NCBI GenBank assembly: GCA_029258885.1
Contig: JAPDJW010000002.1
Location: 544,001 to 608,000 of the forward strand
From: Thermoproteota archaeon
GTDB taxonomy: Archaea > Thermoproteota > Thermoprotei > Thermofilales > B9-G17
Length of the DNA stretch: 64,000 nucleotides
Direction of reading: 5' to 3'
The first letter of the stretch is position 1. Each line of letters begins with the position of its first letter. Positions 2,694-20,178 of the stretch are shown here, piece by piece. Below the pieces are notes generated by a model that was given only the letters and a program-made list of their open reading frames with translations, searched no databases and had not been told where the DNA came from. A program made the translations under genes and the position numbers.

Positions 2694-5600
2694 CTCTCAA
2701 TTCTCTTTTTTGAGAGTATTTCTGTAGCGCATGGTTAGAAGGGAGGGATATAGGTATAATTCAAACTGGAGGGGTGGGCTCTCAATTCTCTTTTTTAGAG
2801 TATTTCTGTAGCTCAAAAGAGAAGTCTTAATTCAGGAGCTTAAGGAACTCTAAATCCTTCTTCTCTCAATTCTCTTTTTTGAGAGTATTTCTGTAGCCTA
2901 ACTGTGTTAAGATTTTAACGATTAGAGGCAAGGCTCTCTCCTCTCAATTCTCTTTTTTGAGAGTATTTCTGTAGCAGTTCTGGAGAAGGCGACCTGTCTA
3001 CTTTGTTTACTTGGGCTTTCTCTCAATTCTCTTTTTTGAGAGTATTTCTGTAGCAGGCTTGAGGAAAAGGGTTGGATACTACATAAGGTGATAACTCTCA
3101 ATTCTCTTTTTTGAGAGTATTTCTGTAGCTTCAAATAGAGGATTGGCTTTACGACAGAGAAATCGAGGAAATCTCTCAATTCTCTTTTTTGAGAGTATTT
3201 CTGTAGCAAAGATGTAGTCGAGAATAGATATATGAGAGAAAAATATGCGACTCTCAATTCTCTTTTTTGAGAGTATTTCTGTAGCAAGCCTGTTTTTCAC
3301 ACCGACAGCCCCGTGGCTGTAAAGAGCTCTCAATTCTCTTTTTTGAGAGTATTTCTGTAGCTGCAGTGGTGTTTGCGTATGTTATGTATCAGGCGTATAT
3401 GGCCTCTCAATTCTCTTTTTTGAGAGTATTTCTGTAGCGCTTATGATGAAATAGATAAAGACGGGCCTAAATGCATAATCTCTCAATTCTCTTTTTTGAG
3501 AGTATTTCTGTAGCAGATAAGAGAATTCTGATGCTGAGAAATGAGATTATCATCTCTCAATTCTCTTTTTTGAGAGTATTTCTGTAGCCAGCAAAATTAT
3601 TAGTTTTTCTAATTGGGGTTAAAAATGGCCTCTCAATTCTCTTTTTTGAGAGTATTTCTGTAGCAAGAAGAGAAGGAGACTGGTGGTGGCAAACCAACAG
3701 GTACACCTCTCAATTCTCTTTTTTGAGAGTATTTCTGTAGCATTTATGACAGAGACTTTAGTTACACTGTCTCCAGAACAACCTCTCAATTCTCTTTTTT
3801 GAGAGTATTTCTGTAGCGTTACAGTAATGCTTGTGTATACAGACTTCACATAATTGCCTCTCAATTCTCTTTTTTGAGAGTATTTCTGTAGCTCAGAAAA
3901 AAGGAGAAAAAAGATACATACCTTTCAAAATTGACTCTCAATTCTCTTTTTTGAGAGTATTTCTGTAGCAGTTAAGAGAAAAGTATGGAGTGGCCACATG
4001 GAAACTAATTCCTCTCAATTCTCTTTTTTGAGAGTATTTCTGTAGCTATGGAGCTGTGAACCCGTGGGATGGCGTAGGATCCGCTACCTCTCAATTCTCT
4101 TTTTTGAGAGTATTTCTGTAGCAAAAGTATATAGCATTCACTACAGAGGAATGGGAAAAGTATCTCTCAATTCTCTTTTTTGAGAGTATTTCTGTAGCAC
4201 GCCGCCATAACCAACAAGGAGTGGCGTGATGTGGTTATTGACTCTCAATTCTCTTTTTTGAGAGTATTTCTGTAGCGAGCTAAAGGAAAAGGAGTTTACA
4301 GCCTATGACGTATCAGCTCTCAATTCTCTTTTTTGAGAGTATTTCTGTAGCATAATAAATGTATCCTACAGGTATGATTCCTCCACTGACTCCTCTCAAT
4401 TCTCTTTTTTGAGAGTATTTCTGTAGCGCAAGTTACACTATGCAATTCTCCATGAGCATAAGGCTAAGACTCTCAATTCTCTTTTTTGAGAGTATTTCTG
4501 TAGCCCCTGAGTATCGGGGGCTGGAGTTAATAGGCTTCCTTACTGTTCTCTCAATTCTCTTTTTTGAGAGTATTTCTGTAGCCAAGAGGATAGTTAAAGC
4601 TGGTATCCATCCATTAGAGAAGAGCTCTCAATTCTCTTTTTTGAGAGTATTTCTGTAGCGTGTATGTATGAAGGATGTAATTGAAAGATTAAAGAAATTC
4701 TCTCAATTCTCTTTTTTGAGAGTATTTCTGTAGCCATGGAATTACGACTGTACACGTAAAGCTTTCATTGAGATACGCTCTCAATTCTCTTTTTTGAGAG
4801 TATTTCTGTAGCAATAACATATAGGAAATTTGAGGAAATTCAGAAATTACCTAACTCTCAATTCTCTTTTTTGAGAGTATTTCTGTAGCCCAGATAATGC
4901 AAAGTACTTCCTTCGAAGATATTTCACAAACCTCTCAATTCTCTTTTTTGAGAGTATTTCTGTAGCATAAAACTGAAAAGAAAATAGCCAATTACAATAA
5001 TAAGATAACTCTCAATTCTCTTTTTTGAGAGTATTTCTGTAGCCCCGTATTAAAATTGCTTGAAGAAAAATATAATTTAAGATTTCTCTCAATTCTCTTT
5101 TTTGAGAGTATTTCTGTAGCTTAAAGATGAAATTGAAGCAAGAACAAAAGCCAATCAAAAGATCTCTCAATTCTCTTTTTTGAGAGTATTTCTGTAGCGA
5201 AGCTAATATAGTCTTTATAAAGCTCCTAGGATTTCTTAGCCTCTCAATTCTCTTTTTTGAGAGTATTTCTGTAGCGAATTGAATTTGAATTTGGAATACA
5301 TAGGTTGGGTATAAACCTCTCAATTCTCTTTTTTGAGAGTATTTCTGTAGCTATCGTTCGGTTTAGAATTTGAGTTTGGCATCCACAGATTAGGAACTCT
5401 CAATTCTCTTTTTTGAGAGTATTTCTGTAGCGCGACCACTATGCTGCACTCTCAGACAGTGTACACGGCACACTGGCTCTCAATTCTCTTTTTTGAGAGT
5501 ATTTCTGTAGCAAAATTATTCATCATAAAATGCTTGAAAATATTCTTAGCGACTTACTCTCAATTCTCTTTTTTGAGAGTATTTCTGTAGCGCAGGAAGA

Positions 5601-6140
5601 GAAACGAGAAGATTGATGTTCTCCGTGAAGTATTGGACTCTCAATTCTCTTTTTTGAGAGTATTTCTGTAGCTTGGAAAGGATAGGCTCTACTAGTGTTC
5701 ATTTAGACGGTAATCTCTCAATTCTCTTTTTTGAGAGTATTTCTGTAGCACACAATATAATATGTATAGAGTGTCCAGAGAACTAGAAAGAACAATACTC
5801 TCAATTCTCTTTTTTGAGAGTATTTCTGTAGCCCAATTTTAAAGATACTTGAGGAAAAATATAATTTAAGATTTCTCTCAATTCTCTTTTTTGAGAGTAT
5901 TTCTGTAGCTAAGCAATAGATTTGTAGCGAAAATAAACCAGCTTATAATTAAATCTCTCAATTCTCTTTTTTGAGAGTATTTCTGTAGCTGGCTGTGAAC
6001 GGCAGGGTGGTTGAGCCTGAGTACTGGAACGCTCTCAATTCTCTTTTTTGAGAGTATTTCTGTAGCGTTTTTGTAGGAGTATAGGCGGTGAGGTTAAGGA
6101 GAAAGCTCTCAATTCTCTTTTTTGAGAGTATTTCTGTAGC
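2694..6140 (-). CRISPR. CRISPR array 1: 45 repeats, 44 spacers; repeat GCTACAGAAATACTCTCAAAAAAGAGAATTGAGAG
   Basis: 35-bp direct repeats counted by eye; spacers ~39-45 nt, the two trailer ones ~50 nt; repeat at 2779 lacks one G. Orientation from the ATTGAGAG 3' end and the AT-rich leader at 6141+. Confidence 0.98.
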
Positions 6141-6540
6141 TGTTTTTGTTGTGTTTATATTTTGTCTCTTTTTGTATTTATGCGTTTCGGTGTTTTAGCA
6201 AAACTGCATTCTACGTTTAGCCCTATTTAAAGGGGTATATATACAAATATTTTTCAACTATATAAAATCGATGGATAAAATATATAAGCTTGAATTTTTG
6301 GCAGCGGATCTTTTTCTCTTTTTAGAAATGATCTTATTGCTATAATTATGAAATTATTAATGTATGCTGGGGAATATGGTATATTATTTTTAATATTTTT
6401 ATCTACTTATTAAAAATTTATTTTTGAAAATATTTTTGGAATGTTTTATCATAGTGATTTTTCATGAAAAGAGAAATAAATCATATATAAAGGGGGTCAA
6501 TGATTATAAGCCGTAAAATTGCCAAATGTTCAATTTGGTT
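6141..6540 (-). promoter_or_regulatory. CRISPR leader 1 (one arm of the inverted leader duplication)
   Basis: AT-rich, abuts the first repeat, contains TATA-like TTTAAATA/TATATATA; reverse complement matches 18665-19065. Confidence 0.85.
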
Positions 6541-11013: not shown

Positions 11014-11715
11014 ATGTATAGTTTAGAGCAATGCAGGATTTTAGGTTTACTGGTAATGTTTAGAAATATCCACCTAGCGGACATATCATTCTACCTGGAC
11101 GCTAGGATGGATGATATTCTCACCTACTGTAGAAGCCTGCGGGGCTACGGCTTCCTAAAGCTCCATGAGAATTCAGCATTGATTACCGAGGCCGGAATAC
11201 GTGCATGCCTAGGGGATCTCGCATTCAGTGGACGGAGATGGTTTATTCTAGTGGTGGATCCATCTGGTGCGCCGAGGGAGATGGATTTCGTGAACGTTAG
11301 GGGACAAGCATACGTAACTCCCTTTACCCTTCAGATGCTCGAGCTAATTAAGCTGCTCTATCGGGAGATCTTCGTAGTCTCATCAAAGGCCTGCAGTATA
11401 TGGATTAGGATGGCTGAGGATAGGATGCCGTACCGCAGAATTATAGACGTCATGAGGACTATAGAGGATATTCAAGATAAACTATCTAGGCTGAGCTATC
11501 CCCGTTCGAGCAGATACGTTAAAGCTATCATATCCAGGCTTAACAGGTGTAGGAGGGAGCTTGAGAAGGCCGCTAGGATAGCTAAGCTTGATTTCAGGCT
11601 AGTAGGGCTAAATAGATCCTTCTCGAGGGATCCGCTAAGCTATTCTAGGGAGCTGTACGGGGTAGCCTTATCGTGTAGGGATAAGGTTCTACGTAGTGCT
11701 GAGGGTCTTAGATAG
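11014..11715 (+). CDS. wHTH-domain hypothetical protein, architecture similar to the divergent neighbour
   Basis: LEQCRILGLL...LRGYGFL...LITEAGIRA wHTH pattern, then WFILVVD...AYVTPF and a helical tail. Confidence 0.6.
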   Translation: MYSLEQCRILGLLVMFRNIHLADISFYLDARMDDILTYCRSLRGYGFLKLHENSALITEAGIRACLGDLAFSGRRWFILVVDPSGAPREMDFVNVRGQAYVTPFTLQMLELIKLLYREIFVVSSKACSIWIRMAEDRMPYRRIIDVMRTIEDIQDKLSRLSYPRSSRYVKAIISRLNRCRRELEKAARIAKLDFRLVGLNRSFSRDPLSYSRELYGVALSCRDKVLRSAEGLR

Positions 11716-11986
11716 CTATATCCTCCTCCTCATGTATCTCGTAGTTGTGTATTATCGTGAGGACTTTAGCTTCGTCTCGTCCACATATTGGTATGGCTAT
11801 AACCCTAGCTTTACTTGGACCTATTATCCTCCTTATTTCGCTCATTATCCCCTTTATTTCGGCGGCTGAAGCCTCGAATAGGAATGCGCTGTACTGTATC
11901 CTATCTCCGCCCATATCCTTAAGGTATCTCCTAACCTCATTCCTAATGCTGTCATCTGATATGTCGTAGACTATAATGTACTTCAA
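11708..11986 (-). CDS. cas2: CRISPR-associated endonuclease Cas2 (copy 1)
   Basis: MKYIIVYDISDD, GGDRIQYSAF, IPIC; 92 aa. Confidence 0.92.
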   Translation of the reverse strand: MKYIIVYDISDDSIRNEVRRYLKDMGGDRIQYSAFLFEASAAEIKGIMSEIRRIIGPSKARVIAIPICGRDEAKVLTIIHNYEIHEEEDIAI

Positions 11987-12037
11987 GCTTCACCTAATAC
12001 TTATATCCCTTTAAATCCTTATTATTTTTGAGGATAA

Positions 12038-13287
12038 ATGACGCGTATAATTAAGATGTTTCTCGAGGATAACGTGTTGTCGGTTTTAATAGATTTAGTT
12101 GCTCTGGATGAAACGTTTGGAGAACGCTCACGCGAAGTACTGGGTAAAGTTGTGTCTAGAGTGGAGGCCATCCTTCTAGCTCATGGAGGCAGAAACCTAG
12201 AGAGGGAGGAAGGTCTGACTTACGTTAAGGTTAAATGTAAAATTAATCCGAGGAGCTACGGCTACGTCGAGAGGAGCCTCACATCCCTAGAGGATGAAGT
12301 TAGGAGGAAGCTGGGGCTGGTTGAACACCTTGTTGCAGTATTTAGGAGTACCTCCAAGCTGTCTCCGTATCTCGTGAGCTTCTATGAGGTTTCCCCCGCG
12401 CTCCCTAGGAGCCCGGAGGGCTATAGAGTTACTTCACGGATAGCCAGAATCCTATCGAGGGAGAGGAGAGTTATCTGGGCGAGTACGGCCTCGGAGTCCT
12501 AGGCTATCTCGTTAAGCCGGGAGTTTCTATTGAGGATAGCTTTAAGGTATACGTTGGAGATAGGGAGTACACCTTAAATAAGCTGCGCGATAGGCGTCTC
12601 AACTTTAACCTTAGAGGCGATAGGGAGTTCTTCAAAAAGATCGTTGATAGGGGTATTAGAAGGAAGTTCCGTGAGCTAGGGTTTAGGGTTCGCGGATACA
12701 TAGTGGTCTATAGCCAGCCCATATACTCATATGAGTATGTGGATGTTTGGCCAGCATGTGAGTTCCAGACTATAATTGATTCGGATGGCACGCTATCCCT
12801 CGCCTTATCGCCGAGACATATCATCGAGTCGATGAGGAGCATAATGGAGGACTACGAGAGCTTAGAGGAGCTGGTTAAAAGGAGGCGGGAGCTAGTGGGA
12901 TGCAGTGTTAGAAGTATCGTTGATGGACAAGTATACAGGATAGTTTCGGTGCTCGATAAGAGGGCGAGGGATTCATTTGAGGAGCTCAACGGTTCAAGCC
13001 TATGCGAGTTCTATAGGGACTACAATATCGACCCAATGGAGCCAGCTATAGTTATCGAGAGGTATGGTTTCAGGCTCCTCCACGCTCCCTCACTTCTAAG
13101 GAGGATATATAGTCCAGCTGAACTGGCAGGTTTAGGCGTAGCTAGGGAGGTTATGAGAGCCATAAAGCTCAACCTGCTAAGGTGGAGCGATACCTCACGC
13201 AACATTGTTAGAACGTTATCTCCCATAGAGATAGATGGAATCGAGATAAGGTTCTCCGATCAGCCCGAGGTTCTCGAGGTGGCGTAG
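12038..13287 (+). CDS. Argonaute N-L1-PAZ-(L2 start) half, interrupted by a -1 frameshift near 12480-12500
   Basis: The frame of ORF 12703-13287 is open from 12427 (GLGVLGYLVKP...FFKKIVDRGIRRKFRELGF) and overlaps the end of ORF 12038-12502; PAZ-like SLCEFYRDYNIDPMEPAIV and LLHAPSLL; L2-like C-terminus. Confidence 0.7.
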
Positions 13288-13288
13288 C

Positions 13289-14236
13289 ATCTACAGGGAG
13301 TTCTGTGATTGGGGCTACATCCTCGCTCCACGTAATGGGGAGATTATAGCTAAGGGACAGATTGAAGCGGGCAGATTTAAGCCCAAGGATAGGATAGTTC
13401 TCTCGGGCTCCGGCTCAATAAATGTCGATGCTGTGGCGAATATCGTCGGTGCGGGAGGCTCAATTTTGGTTGAGAAGGGATCTATACAGCTAGACTACTT
13501 CAACTCTATGTTCTCACGTAACCTGCTGGCTCAGCTCGCGTCTGTGGAGAATTCTGAGGTTAGGAGCAGAGTTGCCTCCTCTATATTGGAGGCTGCTGCA
13601 TATAATAAGATTAGGGTTCTGGAGATACTGGAGGTTCCCGAGGACGTTAGGAGCAGGGTTGTCGGGGAGATTAAGGGGCTTATATCGATGCTTAAAGGAA
13701 CTGTTCTAAGCAGATTGATGGGCGTTGAAGCTAGAATAACCAAGCTCTACTTCGAGGCTCTAAGATACGTAATTCCCGTGGAGTATGGTTTTAAGGCTAG
13801 AACGCGTAGACCCCCTAAGGACTACTTTAGCGCTGCACTAAGCTATGGGAACATGCTCCTCTACAGACACGTACTTAAGGAAATACTTAGGTTCGGCCTG
13901 GATCCTAGGCTAAGCTACCTCCATACGCCCTATAGGCATAGGCCATCGCTAGCGCTCGATATAGCCGAGGAGTTTAGGCAGGCCGTGGTTGATCTAGCAG
14001 TTATTCCGCTCTACACGTCGAGGTCTATGAGCATTAAGGGGGACTTCCAGGTTTTCGGCTCATCCATATACCTCAATAAGCGTGGAAACTTTAAGGTTAG
14101 GAGGAGCTTCCACCACAGGATGAACCTTAGAGTTAAGGGGAGGAGCCTCGCCGACGCAGTAAGAGGTCAGATTAGGAAGCTGCTGGAGTTCATCCACGGC
14201 GATAGGAGCGAATATACTCCGTTCAGAATTCAATAG
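13289..14236 (+). CDS. cas1: CRISPR integrase Cas1, catalytic residues intact (track start 13433; frame open further upstream)
   Basis: MGVEARITKLYF, ALSYGNMLLY, GLDPRLSYLH, SLALDIAEEFR; upstream in-frame IYREFCDWGYILAPRNGEII...IVLSGSGSIN fits the Cas1 beta domain. Confidence 0.92.
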   Translation: MYREFCDWGYILAPRNGEIIAKGQIEAGRFKPKDRIVLSGSGSINVDAVANIVGAGGSILVEKGSIQLDYFNSMFSRNLLAQLASVENSEVRSRVASSILEAAAYNKIRVLEILEVPEDVRSRVVGEIKGLISMLKGTVLSRLMGVEARITKLYFEALRYVIPVEYGFKARTRRPPKDYFSAALSYGNMLLYRHVLKEILRFGLDPRLSYLHTPYRHRPSLALDIAEEFRQAVVDLAVIPLYTSRSMSIKGDFQVFGSSIYLNKRGNFKVRRSFHHRMNLRVKGRSLADAVRGQIRKLLEFIHGDRSEYTPFRIQ

Positions 14237-14480
14237 TATCTATTATAATGATATTTTCATAGCATCTCCTACATGGAAATATTATATCGACCCTCCCAGC
14301 CCCCTCCGCAACGATTCTCCTAATGTCGTTAATCATCCTCTCGGCGTTTTTCTCGTCCAGCTCTACCTCATAAACGCTGTACTCCCTGAAAACGCCGCCG
14401 TAGTCCTTAAGCCTATTCCTTAATCTATCCCTAAGCCTATCATATCCAACTGGGATATCGAAGACGACTATTATCTTCAA
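14223..14480 (-). CDS. cas2: CRISPR-associated endonuclease Cas2 (copy 2)
   Basis: MKIIVVFDIP, LKDYGGVFREYSVYE, IFPC. Confidence 0.88.
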   Translation of the reverse strand: MKIIVVFDIPVGYDRLRDRLRNRLKDYGGVFREYSVYEVELDEKNAERMINDIRRIVAEGAGRVDIIFPCRRCYENIIIIDTIEF

Positions 14481-16164: not shown

Positions 16165-16878
16165 ATGATGCTACGTGGATACAGTCGCCTAGCAGCCTCA
16201 GGCATAAATAGAATGGTTAGAGTAACGGATGTCACGTTATACCTCTTCTGTCCGCGGAAACTCTACCTAGTGGGCTTCCTAGGGATAAGAGGCAGGCCGA
16301 CTAGGGAGAGCATTATGGGTAAATTGGCCCACTACGCATACCTAAGGGCAAGCATCCTAAAGATAACCGAGAATAGGGTGGAGGAGGAGAGCGTGAATAT
16401 AGCTAGAGAGGCAGTCGAGAAGAAGCTTACGGAGGGGCTAAGCGATACGGAGGTCAAGGAGATAGTTGTAAAAACCTTAAGGTTTAGGGCTGAAAACCCG
16501 ATTACGGGTGGGGTTGAGGTCGAGAAGTACGTTGAATCGGTAAGGCTGGGGTTAAACGGACAGATAGACCTAATGGAGGAACATACGCCAGTGGAGGTAA
16601 AGTACAAGTCCAGAGCTGAATACAGGGATCTAATACAGCTAACACTCTACACACTACTACTCGAGGACGTCTACGGGTGGGATATAGATTACGGCTACAT
16701 CGATCTACTTAAGGCTTCAAGAAGGTTAAGAATTGAAGTAAATAATAGGCTTAGAGGTGATGCGCTTAAGCTTAGGGATAAAGTGCAGGAGACAATACTA
16801 ATGGGGACGTATCCGCCAGCTAGGGATAAGTGTAGGGGATGCGACCTAAAGATAGAGTGTAGATCCCTCTTCCACTAG
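16165..16878 (+). CDS. cas4: CRISPR-associated exonuclease Cas4
   Basis: YLFCPRKLY, GQIDL, PVEVKY, QLTLY and C-terminal KCRGCDLKIEC (four Fe-S cysteines). Confidence 0.88.
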   Translation: MMLRGYSRLAASGINRMVRVTDVTLYLFCPRKLYLVGFLGIRGRPTRESIMGKLAHYAYLRASILKITENRVEEESVNIAREAVEKKLTEGLSDTEVKEIVVKTLRFRAENPITGGVEVEKYVESVRLGLNGQIDLMEEHTPVEVKYKSRAEYRDLIQLTLYTLLLEDVYGWDIDYGYIDLLKASRRLRIEVNNRLRGDALKLRDKVQETILMGTYPPARDKCRGCDLKIECRSLFH

Positions 16879-18077
16879 AGGAACCAGAGCCTAGAATAAT
16901 ACTCCTCCGACGGCGATACACCCAACCTAAGGAAGCTACATATCCTATGGGCATACAAAGTCGTTATTGGAAGCCTAGTTGAAGCAAACGCTGAAGCCCA
17001 GTGTAGCTCGCTCAACCAGTACACATCCCTGGCAATATCATACATACTAACCTCCCAGTTAGATGCCTCAGCCAGCTCAACAACAACCGGCCTAACCAAT
17101 CCAGACACATCAATATAGGGGTGCTCCGGGAAGCCTGAGGTAACCACAAGATACCTATATTTATCAAGCACATAGAACGTACCTTTCTCCGGATTAGTAA
17201 CTCTTCTCCCAACCCTCCTGGTAACCCTAGGCACAGCCCTCTTCTTAACCTCAACAAAAACCCAGTTAGATGCAACGCCCTCATCAACAGCCGAGTCCAT
17301 AACATCCCTAACCGCTTCAAGCTCAACATCAAAGGTAGAGCCATCCCTATGAACAACTATTAAATTAACCCTACCAGCATGCCTATGAATAACGTCGAGA
17401 GCGAGCGTAAGCACATTCCTAATCGAATAGATAACCTCAACCCCGGGATTAAACTCGAAGCGCCAGTCGAAGAATATGCCCCCATCAAACACGAAGACTG
17501 TTACAACAACGTTGTTACCGACAGTATCCAAGCCAATATACGCATCACCTAAAAGCCTATCCCCCAAAACCCAAGGTATTCCCCCAGCCTTACAGTAGAT
17601 AGACAGAGCTAAATTAAAGAGAACATAGGATTTACCCGCAAGCCTTCTAATAGTAGAGTATGTAACCATTTGACTAGGAATCCCACGTAGAGCTAAAGCC
17701 TGCTTAATAGGAACATAGGGATCCTCCTCAAAACCCGGATAGTTTTCATCGGGAACAGCTACGATAGCTACATCAACATCCTCAATTGAATCGATGACAT
17801 CAGCGTACCTATCATATGATTCAAAGAAGTACTCAACGTCCCCAACCCTACAGCCAAACCATCCAGTAAGACCTCCAAAACCCCTAACACCATAGATAAG
17901 GTTATCCATGAGGACACGAGAGTAGCTATACATTCCACGAGGACAGATAAAACAGAGCCTAACAGCATCAGGACCGGAGAAAGGACCGAAGCCGAGTTTA
18001 AACCCCTCATAGGGGAAAATAGAGGTACCACTCCCAAACCTTAAAACAGGCCTAGAGAAGACGCCTCCCCTAACCAT
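16875..18077 (-). CDS. ago: Argonaute L2-MID-PIWI half with DEDH tetrad
   Basis: PVLRFG...GFGPF; MID pocket Y121/K125/Q136/K163; YIGLD(184), E214, HRD(245)G, RLPITTLYAH(377); WFL C-terminus. Confidence 0.92.
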   Translation of the reverse strand: MVRGGVFSRPVLRFGSGTSIFPYEGFKLGFGPFSGPDAVRLCFICPRGMYSYSRVLMDNLIYGVRGFGGLTGWFGCRVGDVEYFFESYDRYADVIDSIEDVDVAIVAVPDENYPGFEEDPYVPIKQALALRGIPSQMVTYSTIRRLAGKSYVLFNLALSIYCKAGGIPWVLGDRLLGDAYIGLDTVGNNVVVTVFVFDGGIFFDWRFEFNPGVEVIYSIRNVLTLALDVIHRHAGRVNLIVVHRDGSTFDVELEAVRDVMDSAVDEGVASNWVFVEVKKRAVPRVTRRVGRRVTNPEKGTFYVLDKYRYLVVTSGFPEHPYIDVSGLVRPVVVELAEASNWEVSMYDIARDVYWLSELHWASAFASTRLPITTLYAHRICSFLRLGVSPSEEYYSRLWFL

Positions 18078-19065: not shown

Positions 19066-20178
19066 GCTACAATAAAACTCTCAAAAAAGAGAATTGAGAG
19101 GCCTTGTGATGTGGAAGTATAGTCGCTTGATGGCATCTGCTCTGCTACAATAAAACTCTCAAAAAAGAGAATTGAGAGGCAATATTGGCTGTGTCGTTGC
19201 CTATAAGATACAATGGGTATATCGCTACAATAAAACTCTCAAAAAAGAGAATTGAGAGAGGCAGTCATATCGTGTTGCCTTCTCCATCCTCTTGGCAAGT
19301 ATCGCTACAATAAAACTCTCAAAAAAGAGAATTGAGAGATTTTTCCACAATATGGTGAATTCACTTGAGTGTTCTGTCTTAGCTACAATAAAACTCTCAA
19401 AAAAGAGAATTGAGAGATATACTCGTCAATTTTCGTTAACGCCTCTGTTAAGTCCTCGCTACAATAAAACTCTCAAAAAAGAGAATTGAGAGATATAATC
19501 TAGTTTCATCTACCTCGCTTTCAAAGAGACCAACGCTACAGAAATACTCTCAAAAAAGAGAATTGAGAGTAGCATTTTGAGTAATTTAACGATTTTATCC
19601 CACTCTTCTGCTACAGAAATACTCTCAAAAAAGAGAATTGAGAGTCTTCATCAGTTACCTTGAATGGCAAGTTCTCTATTCTTACTTGCTACAGAAATAC
19701 TCTCAAAAAAGAGAATTGAGAGAGACATAGTCTTTTACCACAGTAATGTAGCCGTCAATAATGCTACAGAAATACTCTCAAAAAAGAGAATTGAGAGGCA
19801 TGCCTAGTCGTAACCGGCGGCATACTAATTCTCATAAGCGCTACAGAAATACTCTCAAAAAAGAGAATTGAGAGTATAGAAGCGTTTACTTTTCTTTTCT
19901 CCTCATTAAGCTTATTGCTACAGAAATACTCTCAAAAAAGAGAATTGAGAGGATAGGGATTTTAGGTTATTCTAATTCTTTTTTCAATTTCGCTACAGAA
20001 ATACTCTCAAAAAAGAGAATTGAGAGGAATTATGCTCAGTTTTTAGGTATTGCTTAATGACTTTTATGCTACAGAAATACTCTCAAAAAAGAGAATTGAG
20101 AGAGCATGTTAGTGTACATCTCTACAACATCCTTTAATGTCATGCTACAGAAATACTCTCAAAAAAGAGAATTGAGAG
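19066..20178 (+). CRISPR. CRISPR array 2: 15 repeats, 14 spacers, plus a trailing spacer and a GCTACA stub at 20218
   Basis: Repeats 1-6 are GCTACAATAAAACTCTCAAAAAAGAGAATTGAGAG; repeats 7-15 are GCTACAGAAATACTCTCAAAAAAGAGAATTGAGAG, identical to array 1. Confidence 0.98.

Follow-up and report, generated by a model that had tools for sequence, protein, structure and literature searches.

The split prokaryotic Argonautes (pAgos) described in the literature covered here, AfAgo and the short pAgos with their APAZ partners, are catalytically dead and lack a canonical PAZ domain, and splitting has hence been discussed together with the loss of slicing. In Archaeoglobus fulgidus, the AfAgo-N/AfAgo heterodimer (fAfAgo) is a split long-B pAgo encoded by adjacent genes, in which AfAgo-N provides N-L1-L2 without PAZ and the PIWI domain of AfAgo is inactive; the AfAgo-N gene of strain DSM4304 is broken by a 2-bp deletion and was recognised from an intact orthologue (PMC10954474). 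Short pAgos are likewise catalytically dead, and their APAZ partners, encoded next to them, are devoid of PAZ and usually come with an effector (TIR, SIR2, or a nuclease) (PMC10954474, PMC6299218). A CRISPR-linked pAgo is represented by MpAgo from Marinitoga piezophila, a single chain encoded in a type III-B locus of the order Cas1-Cas2-Cas6-pAgo-Cmr, whose MID-OH pocket accepts 5'-OH guides (PMC6299218). Here, we analysed a stretch of 64,000 nucleotides (the window; positions 544,001 to 608,000 of contig JAPDJW010000002.1, assembly GCA_029258885.1) from a Thermoproteota archaeon. Its positions 12038-13287 probably constitute agoN, the gene for the N-lobe, extended by a ferredoxin-like domain, of a two-subunit Argonaute whose second subunit is encoded by agoMP; in this genome, agoN most likely became a pseudogene by a recent deletion of one G.

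A close parallel is fAfAgo: in both systems an N-lobe and a MID-PIWI part made as separate proteins rebuild, by prediction in the present case, the long-pAgo architecture, with the split in or near L2. In both, the N-lobe gene is broken by a small deletion and was revealed by an intact orthologue, and in distant members of the present family the gene for the N-half is followed by an adjacent gene for the PIWI half, the same order as in fAfAgo. In contrast to fAfAgo, the present N-half has a full-size PAZ, and the present PIWI half keeps a DEDH tetrad and scores best against the active long-A CbAgo and CpAgo. Furthermore, an extra domain of 96 residues is present, to which our searches aligned no Argonaute chain, the halves in the window are located on opposite strands with cas1, cas2, a degenerate cas1, CARF and cas4 between them, and the locus has no downstream gene for an Aga2-like, TIR, HEPN or Sir2 effector. 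Short pAgos with APAZ (SPARTA, SPARSA, SPARDA, and SiAgo-Aga1) are comparable in that an N-L1-L2-like partner binds a MID-PIWI protein of ~400-500 amino acids (aa), whereas the N-half studied here has PAZ and no fused effector domain, and the tetrad of its partner is intact. If joined, the two halves show the N-L1-PAZ-L2-MID-PIWI order of the single-chain long-A pAgos (CbAgo 6qzk, CpAgo 9jh7, TtAgo 3f73, and PfAgo 1u04), with which they share the YK-type MID pocket and which provide their best fold and profile matches; unlike these, the present Argonaute consists of two genes, has an added N-terminal domain, and is at most 30% identical to the long forms. MpAgo-like systems also have a pAgo gene among cas1 and cas2 in a CRISPR locus, but here the protein is split, its pocket is YKQK, and the neighbours form an adaptation module with a second, degenerate cas1. 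A description of such a split long-A, adaptation-linked Argonaute family was not found in the literature, our coverage of which was incomplete and does not prove novelty; apparently, a split slicer-type Argonaute family tied to CRISPR adaptation has been undescribed so far.

AgoN is the N-L1-PAZ-L2 lobe of a long-type Argonaute

In the window, agoN is distributed over two frames of the forward strand. The ORF list of the window contains a 154-aa open reading frame (ORF) at 12038-12502 in frame 2, and frame 1 is open over 286 aa from 12427 to 13287, with the first ATG, GTG or TTG available at 12703; the two overlap by 76 nt and are offset by one base. A word-based homologue search with the 286-aa piece returned a sole match, P0004, a hypothetical protein encoded on QMRD01000045 of a Thermoprotei metagenome-assembled genome, which spans both pieces in a single frame of 416 aa with 97% identity. 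Addition of one G to the window also generates a product of 416 aa, the same length as P0004. The preliminary description of this DNA, made from the sequence alone, had postulated a product of ~416 aa by adding one base near 12475-12485 and joining the ORF 12038-12502 to the frame ending at 13287; alignment with the orthologue places the lesion at 12476-12478, within the predicted interval. The parts of the gene are as follows, with + denoting the forward and - the reverse strand here and in later lists:

12009-12037, +: putative expression signals of agoN, a TATA-like TTTAAA (24-29 nt) and a GAGG (5 nt) upstream of the ATG
12038-12325, +: codons 1-96, extra beta-beta-alpha-beta-beta-alpha domain, the proposed 'clasp', with a YGxxER motif (Y74, G75, E78, R79)
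12326-12478, +: codons 97-147, first part of the N domain, original frame
12476-12478, +: frameshift site, GGG where relatives have GGGG (1-nt deletion), after which the original frame meets TAG at 12500-12502
12481-12606, +: codons 149-190 (numbered as in the intact protein), remainder of the N domain, frame 1, borders approximate and taken from the secondary structure of the model
12607-12840, +: codons ~191-268, linker L1, border approximate
12841-13107, +: codons ~269-357, PAZ, containing SLCEFYRDYNIDPMEPAIV and LLHAPSLL
13108-13287, +: codons ~358-416 and TAG, first part of L2 and end of the subunit, from model, fold and profile

Pfam gave no match for either fragment, the intact orthologue, or 27 family members at E-values up to 0.1, and a single-sequence phmmer search of the 286-aa fragment against the PDB returned nothing significant. 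An exhaustive HMMER search delineated an N-half family of 30 representative clusters, nearly all of 350-460 aa and none of them fused to PIWI. The profile of this family (27 members) matched the N-lobes of KmAgo (4e-8), PfAgo (1.2e-6), CbAgo (9e-6), and TtAgo (2e-5) in the PDB and aligned the PAZ regions of KmAgo, PfAgo and TtAgo. Furthermore, an AlphaFold2 model of intact AgoN, computed with the family alignment, reached a predicted local distance difference test score (pLDDT) of 91.0 and a predicted template modelling score (pTM) of 0.73, and the top 50 matches of this model in a Foldseek search against the PDB were all Argonaute or PIWI proteins, with E-values down to 5e-14. By fold superposition with VIA-align, residues 97-416 of the model were aligned to PliAgo 4-337 (Z 19.8), CbAgo 5-336 (Z 19.5), TtAgo 9-313 (Z 18.8, root-mean-square deviation 3.6 Å, 287 residues aligned), and PfAgo 5-322 (Z 14.1). 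Since alignments of that length need a complete PAZ, the PAZ of AgoN is full-size. According to the model, residues 97-416 of the agoN product are the N-L1-PAZ-L2 lobe of a long-type Argonaute, and the N-domain, PAZ and L2 segments that had previously been recognised from the sequence alone are supported by both profile and fold.

AgoN and AgoMP as probable halves of one Argonaute

The second subunit is encoded on the other strand:

16875-18077, -: agoMP, 400-aa L2b-MID-PIWI subunit (Pfam Piwi 4e-16), with the tetrad D184, E214, D245 and H377 and the pocket residues Y121, K125, Q136 and K163

Its family comprises ~30 clusters of uniformly 382-408 aa, and the nearest proteins longer than 700 aa are 29-30% identical. 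The PIWI-half profile matched CbAgo (2e-40) and CpAgo (4e-38) best in the PDB, and its bit scores descended from these two (142 and 135) through AaAgo (95), AfAgo (93) and RsAgo (57) to TtAgo (41), a ranking which suggests that the split Argonaute is long-A-like. D184 and D245 face the catalytic aspartates D541 and D611 of CbAgo, both of which are mutated in its structure, H377 faces D727 at the fourth tetrad position, and E214 falls within one residue of E577; the DEDH tetrad is also that of PfAgo. This tetrad is complete in the subclade of the window, and the 5'-phosphate pocket (Y121, K125, Q136 and K163, or YKQK) is invariant in 26/26 members.

Several lines of evidence connect the two proteins. 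PADLOC model PDLC02428, which describes a single-chain pAgo with 666 positions, is matched by the N-half at 5-288 (4e-14) and by the PIWI half at 296-659 (2e-49), thus by consecutive parts without overlap. N-half residue 406 falls on position 288 and PIWI-half residue 6 on position 296, so the earlier claim that the chain stops at the point where the PIWI gene takes over is correct. Both halves are encoded at one locus in this genome (G000), in genomes G006, G007 and G024, and on the contigs L002 and L019, and each genome of the class with a full-length N-half also has a PIWI half at the locus (for G058, probably). The members furthest removed, at 20-26% identity, have the PIWI-half gene directly behind the N-half gene with no cas1 in between; the two overlap by 4 nt in L021 and L023 and are separated by 8 nt in L022. 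The split extends throughout the clade, with N-halves of 350-460 aa, PIWI halves of 382-408 aa, and no long form above 30% identity. The arrangement in the window, where the halves lie 3.6 kb apart on opposite strands as originally reported, is a derived state of one clade and not a property of the family.

In G058, the N-half (C4:123281-124429) lies 29 nt from a contig end and the PIWI half (C11:56122-57297) 2.7 kb from the end of another contig; if these contigs abut, the terminal agoN and cas2 would recreate the divergent cas2/agoN junction of the window, within a further gene order.

Complex prediction with both family alignments yielded an interaction prediction score from aligned errors (ipSAE) of 0.84-0.85 in three runs, whereas the best of three controls scored 0.00. 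The runs shared at least 90% of contacts, and the pLDDT of the partner was at least 85. In the benchmark for the ipSAE mark, it was reached by 58/80 solved complexes and by 2/110 mismatched pairs. By this prediction, AgoN and AgoMP of intact strains would assemble 1:1 into the counterpart of a long-A-type pAgo. The earlier proposal of a heterodimeric long-type Argonaute, with an interface between AgoN and the 16875-18077 product, hence gains support from fold, shared profile, shared loci, adjacency in distant members, and a complex score of 0.85 vs 0.00.

The extra N-terminal domain as a putative clasp

Argonaute structures were aligned by VIA-align from AgoN residue 97 on and none earlier, and the match to the PADLOC pAgo profile begins at residue 99. 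An N-terminal alpha/beta unit atypical of pAgos had been put at ~105 aa; the unit is real, as no Argonaute aligns there, whereas its extent has to be corrected to residues 1-96. Folded alone, the domain reached an AlphaFold2 pLDDT of 92.8. It is conserved family-wide, and G75, present in 26/27 sequences, is among the three most conserved positions of AgoN.

Foldseek retrieved no match of the domain in the PDB at E ≤0.001. Its VIA-align comparison against 48,161 chains gave a best Z of 7.6, the matches being designed ferredoxins, ACT-like and ribosomal S6-like folds, and structures from the ESM Atlas, namely TRCF and ACT-like ones, were similar at template modelling scores of 0.55-0.69. In an Atlas feature search, residues 1-98 retrieved Argonaute N/L1/PAZ clusters at 0.79-0.86, which is under the level that counts. 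Because the domain resembles generic two-layer sandwiches without a specific relative, no function can be read from its fold.

In the complex model, helix 71-86 of the extra domain is predicted to touch residues 11-20 of the PIWI half, with the tightest contacts made by residues 71-79, and G75 would contact the invariant G17-T18. The contacting segments on the G75 side and on the G17/T18 side are the most conserved of their respective regions. From this model, we infer that the extra domain may serve as a clasp compensating for the broken L2 linker.

A probable recent one-nucleotide deletion in agoN

The metagenomic contig L002, which encodes the intact orthologue P0004, served as reference for the DNA alignment, the indel count and the comparison of non-synonymous with synonymous substitution rates (dN/dS). 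At the lesion, the window reads TCT-GGG-CGAGTAC where L002 has TCTGGGGCGAGTAC. Over the 6.6 kb common to the window and L002 (98.6% identity), the loss of this G is the sole net indel, so the break in agoN is not the sign of an indel-ridden assembly. The extra G behind 12476 is also present in contigs of X2, X3 and X4, three metagenomes from different studies. In contrast, a Logan contig from X1 (8.6 kb, k-mer depth 12.4) has GGG and is otherwise identical to the stretch in the window. X1 is the probable source run of the window, and the Logan contig was assembled separately, probably from the same reads. The dN/dS of agoN against L002 is 0.20 (27.5 synonymous and 19.5 non-synonymous differences); outside the lesion, the gene is thus without decay, which indicates that the lesion is young. 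With good confidence we regard it as a real 1-nt deletion, given that the separate assembly of X1 reproduced GGG.

The best surviving alternative is that the missing G arose by sequencing or assembly, and that the organism possesses an unbroken agoN for 416 aa and a functional Argonaute of two subunits. Such an error would fit the location within a homopolymer (G4 to G3), the GGGG in four relatives (L002, X2, X3, and X4), and the undamaged remainder of the gene with its dN/dS of 0.20; moreover, X1 and the window probably derive from the same data, and the GGG of the former would then not be independent. We nevertheless consider it unlikely, as the separately built Logan contig repeats GGG with no further difference, a run of three versus four bases is an untypical error site for accurate reads, and no second net indel occurs across the 6.6 kb shared with the 98.6%-identical L002.

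If the deletion is real, it truncates AgoN after residue 147, and the complete enzyme is most likely not made here; the truncated 154-aa product still contains the entire extra domain. In this genome, the reading frame of agoN is interrupted, and the gene is most likely a fresh, very recent pseudogene. The preliminary description had suggested searching for intact orthologues and had held that a frameshift confirmed in reads and absent from relatives would mean decay. An intact orthologue exists in P0004 (97% identity), and GGGG is also found in X2-X4. The GGG is repeated in the separate X1 assembly and absent from the four relatives, on which grounds this strain has most likely lost a functioning system, the comparison being one of contigs.

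The 5' part of agoN (12038-12475) differs from L002 at a synonymous divergence (dS) of 0.21, compared with 0.046 for the 3' part (12481-13284), and two contig variants in X2 cover parts of agoN. This pattern suggests recombination or an allele mosaic within the gene.

Association with CRISPR adaptation genes

The window presents the gene order cas2 (-), agoN (+), cas1 (+), cas2 (-), degenerate cas1 (-), CARF/APE2256 (-), cas4 (+), and agoMP (-), such that the two halves bracket cas1, cas2 and the degenerate cas1. Apart from the Argonaute genes, it comprises:

11708-11986, -: cas2, divergent from agoN, with a common intergenic region of 51 nt
13289-14236, +: cas1, aligned start ATC at 13289, 2 nt after the agoN stop; first canonical start GTG at 13433
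14223-14480, -: cas2, between the halves; Pfam family assigned on the 98.6%-identical L002 gene
14477-15346, -: degenerate cas1 paralogue, between the halves; Pfam family assigned on the L002 gene
15304-16134, -: CARF (Cas_APE2256) gene, between the halves in this clade
16165-16878, +: cas4, between the halves in this clade

Two CRISPR arrays (3403-6149 and 19302-20178) with the same ~36-nt repeat in opposite orientations bracket this nurA-herA-cas-Argonaute cassette. Effector (interference) genes, Cmr genes included, were not seen between the arrays. The contig L019 (37% identity) has the same gene order as the window. In G006, G007 and G024, agoN-cas1 is followed by cas2 and the degenerate cas1 on the opposite strand and then by agoMP on the agoN strand, the halves being ~2 kb apart on the same strand. 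Even in the distant L021, a cas2 is located divergently upstream of agoN.

Throughout the window's clade, cas1 either overlaps the agoN end or directly adjoins it. The cas1 frame encodes the conserved Cas1 N-terminus from ~13289, and neither the window nor L002 has a canonical start there; ATC 13289 is the position aligned to the start codons of cas1 in relatives, and Cas1 of L002 is annotated as 325 aa from a non-canonical start. This arrangement suggests that translation of cas1 may be coupled to agoN by termination-reinitiation. In that case, early termination at 12502 would reduce the production of Cas1 in this strain as well.

The proximity to cas1 allows for a different role, in which AgoN would mainly assist Cas1 within the adaptation complex, for example by measuring or holding the 3' ends of prespacers with its PAZ, and would not be an obligate PIWI subunit. 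As arguments for it, agoN is in the window's clade always directly upstream of cas1, while the PIWI gene shifts its position and strand, G002 has retained the PIWI half but shows no N-half, and a distant member, too, has cas2 divergently upstream of its agoN. We nonetheless judge this role to be quite improbable, since distant members have the PIWI half right after the N-half with no intervening cas1, the halves map to contiguous parts of one pAgo profile, and contacts are predicted between the top-conserved N-half motif and invariant PIWI-half residues; furthermore, both roles are compatible with each other. Finally, a programmed frameshift or phase-variable switch at the G run, by which some full-length AgoN would still be made, deserves hardly any credence: although the break sits in a short homopolymer and the 76-nt frame overlap would let a -1 slip anywhere in 12427-12499 restore AgoN, all four relatives encode AgoN in one frame, efficient slipping would need a run far longer than 3-4 bases, and a programmed frameshift was rejected for want of an X-XXY-YYZ slippery heptamer at the site (TTA TCT GGG CGA).

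Among the further neighbours, nurA and herA are found in the window at 6.5-10.4 kb. In G007 (L016 6454-9074), the PIWI half is followed by a ~350-aa protein of unassigned family and a HerA-type ATPase; the system may include a HerA motor. In G058 (L029 2781-5520), Cas6 and a 531-aa protein without family match are encoded a few genes past the PIWI half, beyond cas4 and a 310-aa gene.

Proposed mechanism and its limits

Returning to AgoN as the N-lobe of a two-subunit Argonaute, we propose that in intact strains the extra domain with its YGxxER helix, together with the N domain, would clamp the conserved N-terminal PVLRFGxGT segment of the partner and the PIWI surface. PAZ would hold the guide's 3' end and the YKQK pocket its 5'-phosphate, while the DEDH tetrad would cleave the target. 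The nuclease might then cooperate with spacer acquisition, for instance by supplying Cas1-Cas2 and Cas4 with invader DNA fragments that it made or selected. The catalytic activity of the split Argonaute, its type of guide and its link to adaptation are all inferred. In its most far-reaching form, this would be the first competent two-subunit Argonaute with a clasp and a physical or functional part of the CRISPR adaptation machinery, its cuts feeding Cas1-Cas2/Cas4 or, alternatively, CRISPR-derived nucleic acids guiding it, and innate Argonaute defence would thereby be joined directly to adaptive CRISPR memory; we put this forward tentatively, as a possibility with the odds against it.

A number of points weigh against our interpretation. 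First, E214 is one residue off the glutamate finger of CbAgo in the hidden Markov model (HMM) alignment. Second, across the PIWI-half family the tetrad positions are kept as D in 19/26, E in 15/26, D in 16/26, and H in 16/26 members; with ~40% of members substituted in the tetrad (often D to E), activity is no family-wide certainty. Third, single-chain Argonautes and fAfAgo have been solved, and the complex score may therefore partly reflect likeness to them, the contacts contributed by the extra domain being free of this bias, as no solved Argonaute was aligned there in the searches. Fourth, the evidence on the G run consists of contigs, and with X1 probably being the window's own sample, a systematic read error is possible. 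Fifth, the link between Argonaute and adaptation is deduced from gene order. Lastly, in G002 (99% complete) a PIWI half is present and an N-half is not detectable anywhere in the genome; this orphan implies either that pairing is not obligatory in every genome or that decay is common.

If our reading holds, a slicer Argonaute can work as two subunits, and thermophiles would thus offer a natural scaffold on which split or inducible versions of programmable nucleases could be built. The run of agoN into cas1 and the constant company of cas1, cas2 and the degenerate cas1 make the long-suspected cooperation of Argonautes with adaptation testable. In addition, the broken agoN, like AfAgo-N of DSM4304, is a warning that the partner of a 'stand-alone' MID-PIWI protein may simply be lost or hidden.

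Distribution, loss of halves and further Argonaute loci

The N-half profile matched in 7/120 genomes of the class, belonging to 7/39 genera, in a patchy and island-like distribution. The family spans PIWI halves down to ~34% identity and N-halves down to ~20%. Counted among the N-half matches is a single-chain pAgo of 758 aa (G057:C18:965-3172), which the N-half profile (4.5e-13) as well as the PIWI-half profile (1e-31) matches and which represents a candidate unsplit relative for rooting the family.

Within the PIWI-half family, a subclade (P0047, P0048, P0050, P0053-P0058, and P0060) has D245 replaced by E (H-x-E-G). In most of its members D184 is also replaced by E, three keeping D and one each having S and N. 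The glutamate finger and often the fourth residue are missing, while the 5'-phosphate pocket is invariant. Judged by their residues, these proteins are probably non-slicing split Argonautes of the same family.

The PIWI half of G002 (L030 9754-10971; G002:C17:30754-31971) is a frame of 406 codons with no canonical start before codon 109. Surrounded by genes for CARF/APE2256, HerA, and an AAA_14 ATPase, this half may be decayed or orphaned. A 426-aa gene beside it was considered as a divergent N-half and rejected, as it matched AAA_14 and reached an hhalign probability of 0.4% against the N-half family. The frameshift described here, the absence in G002, and AfAgo-N of A. fulgidus DSM4304 hint that N-halves are lost repeatedly, these being three cases with no statistic.

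Finally, this genome contains a second Argonaute locus (L025; G000:C4:171309-175127). Its 465-aa MID-PIWI protein matches Pfam Piwi (2.5e-10), PADLOC PDLC02436 (1e-100), and class I short-pAgo models (1e-73 to 1e-74). A metallo-beta-lactamase-fold gene is situated downstream, and just upstream on the same strand lies a 316-aa gene without family match, which may encode an APAZ/N-L1-L2 partner.

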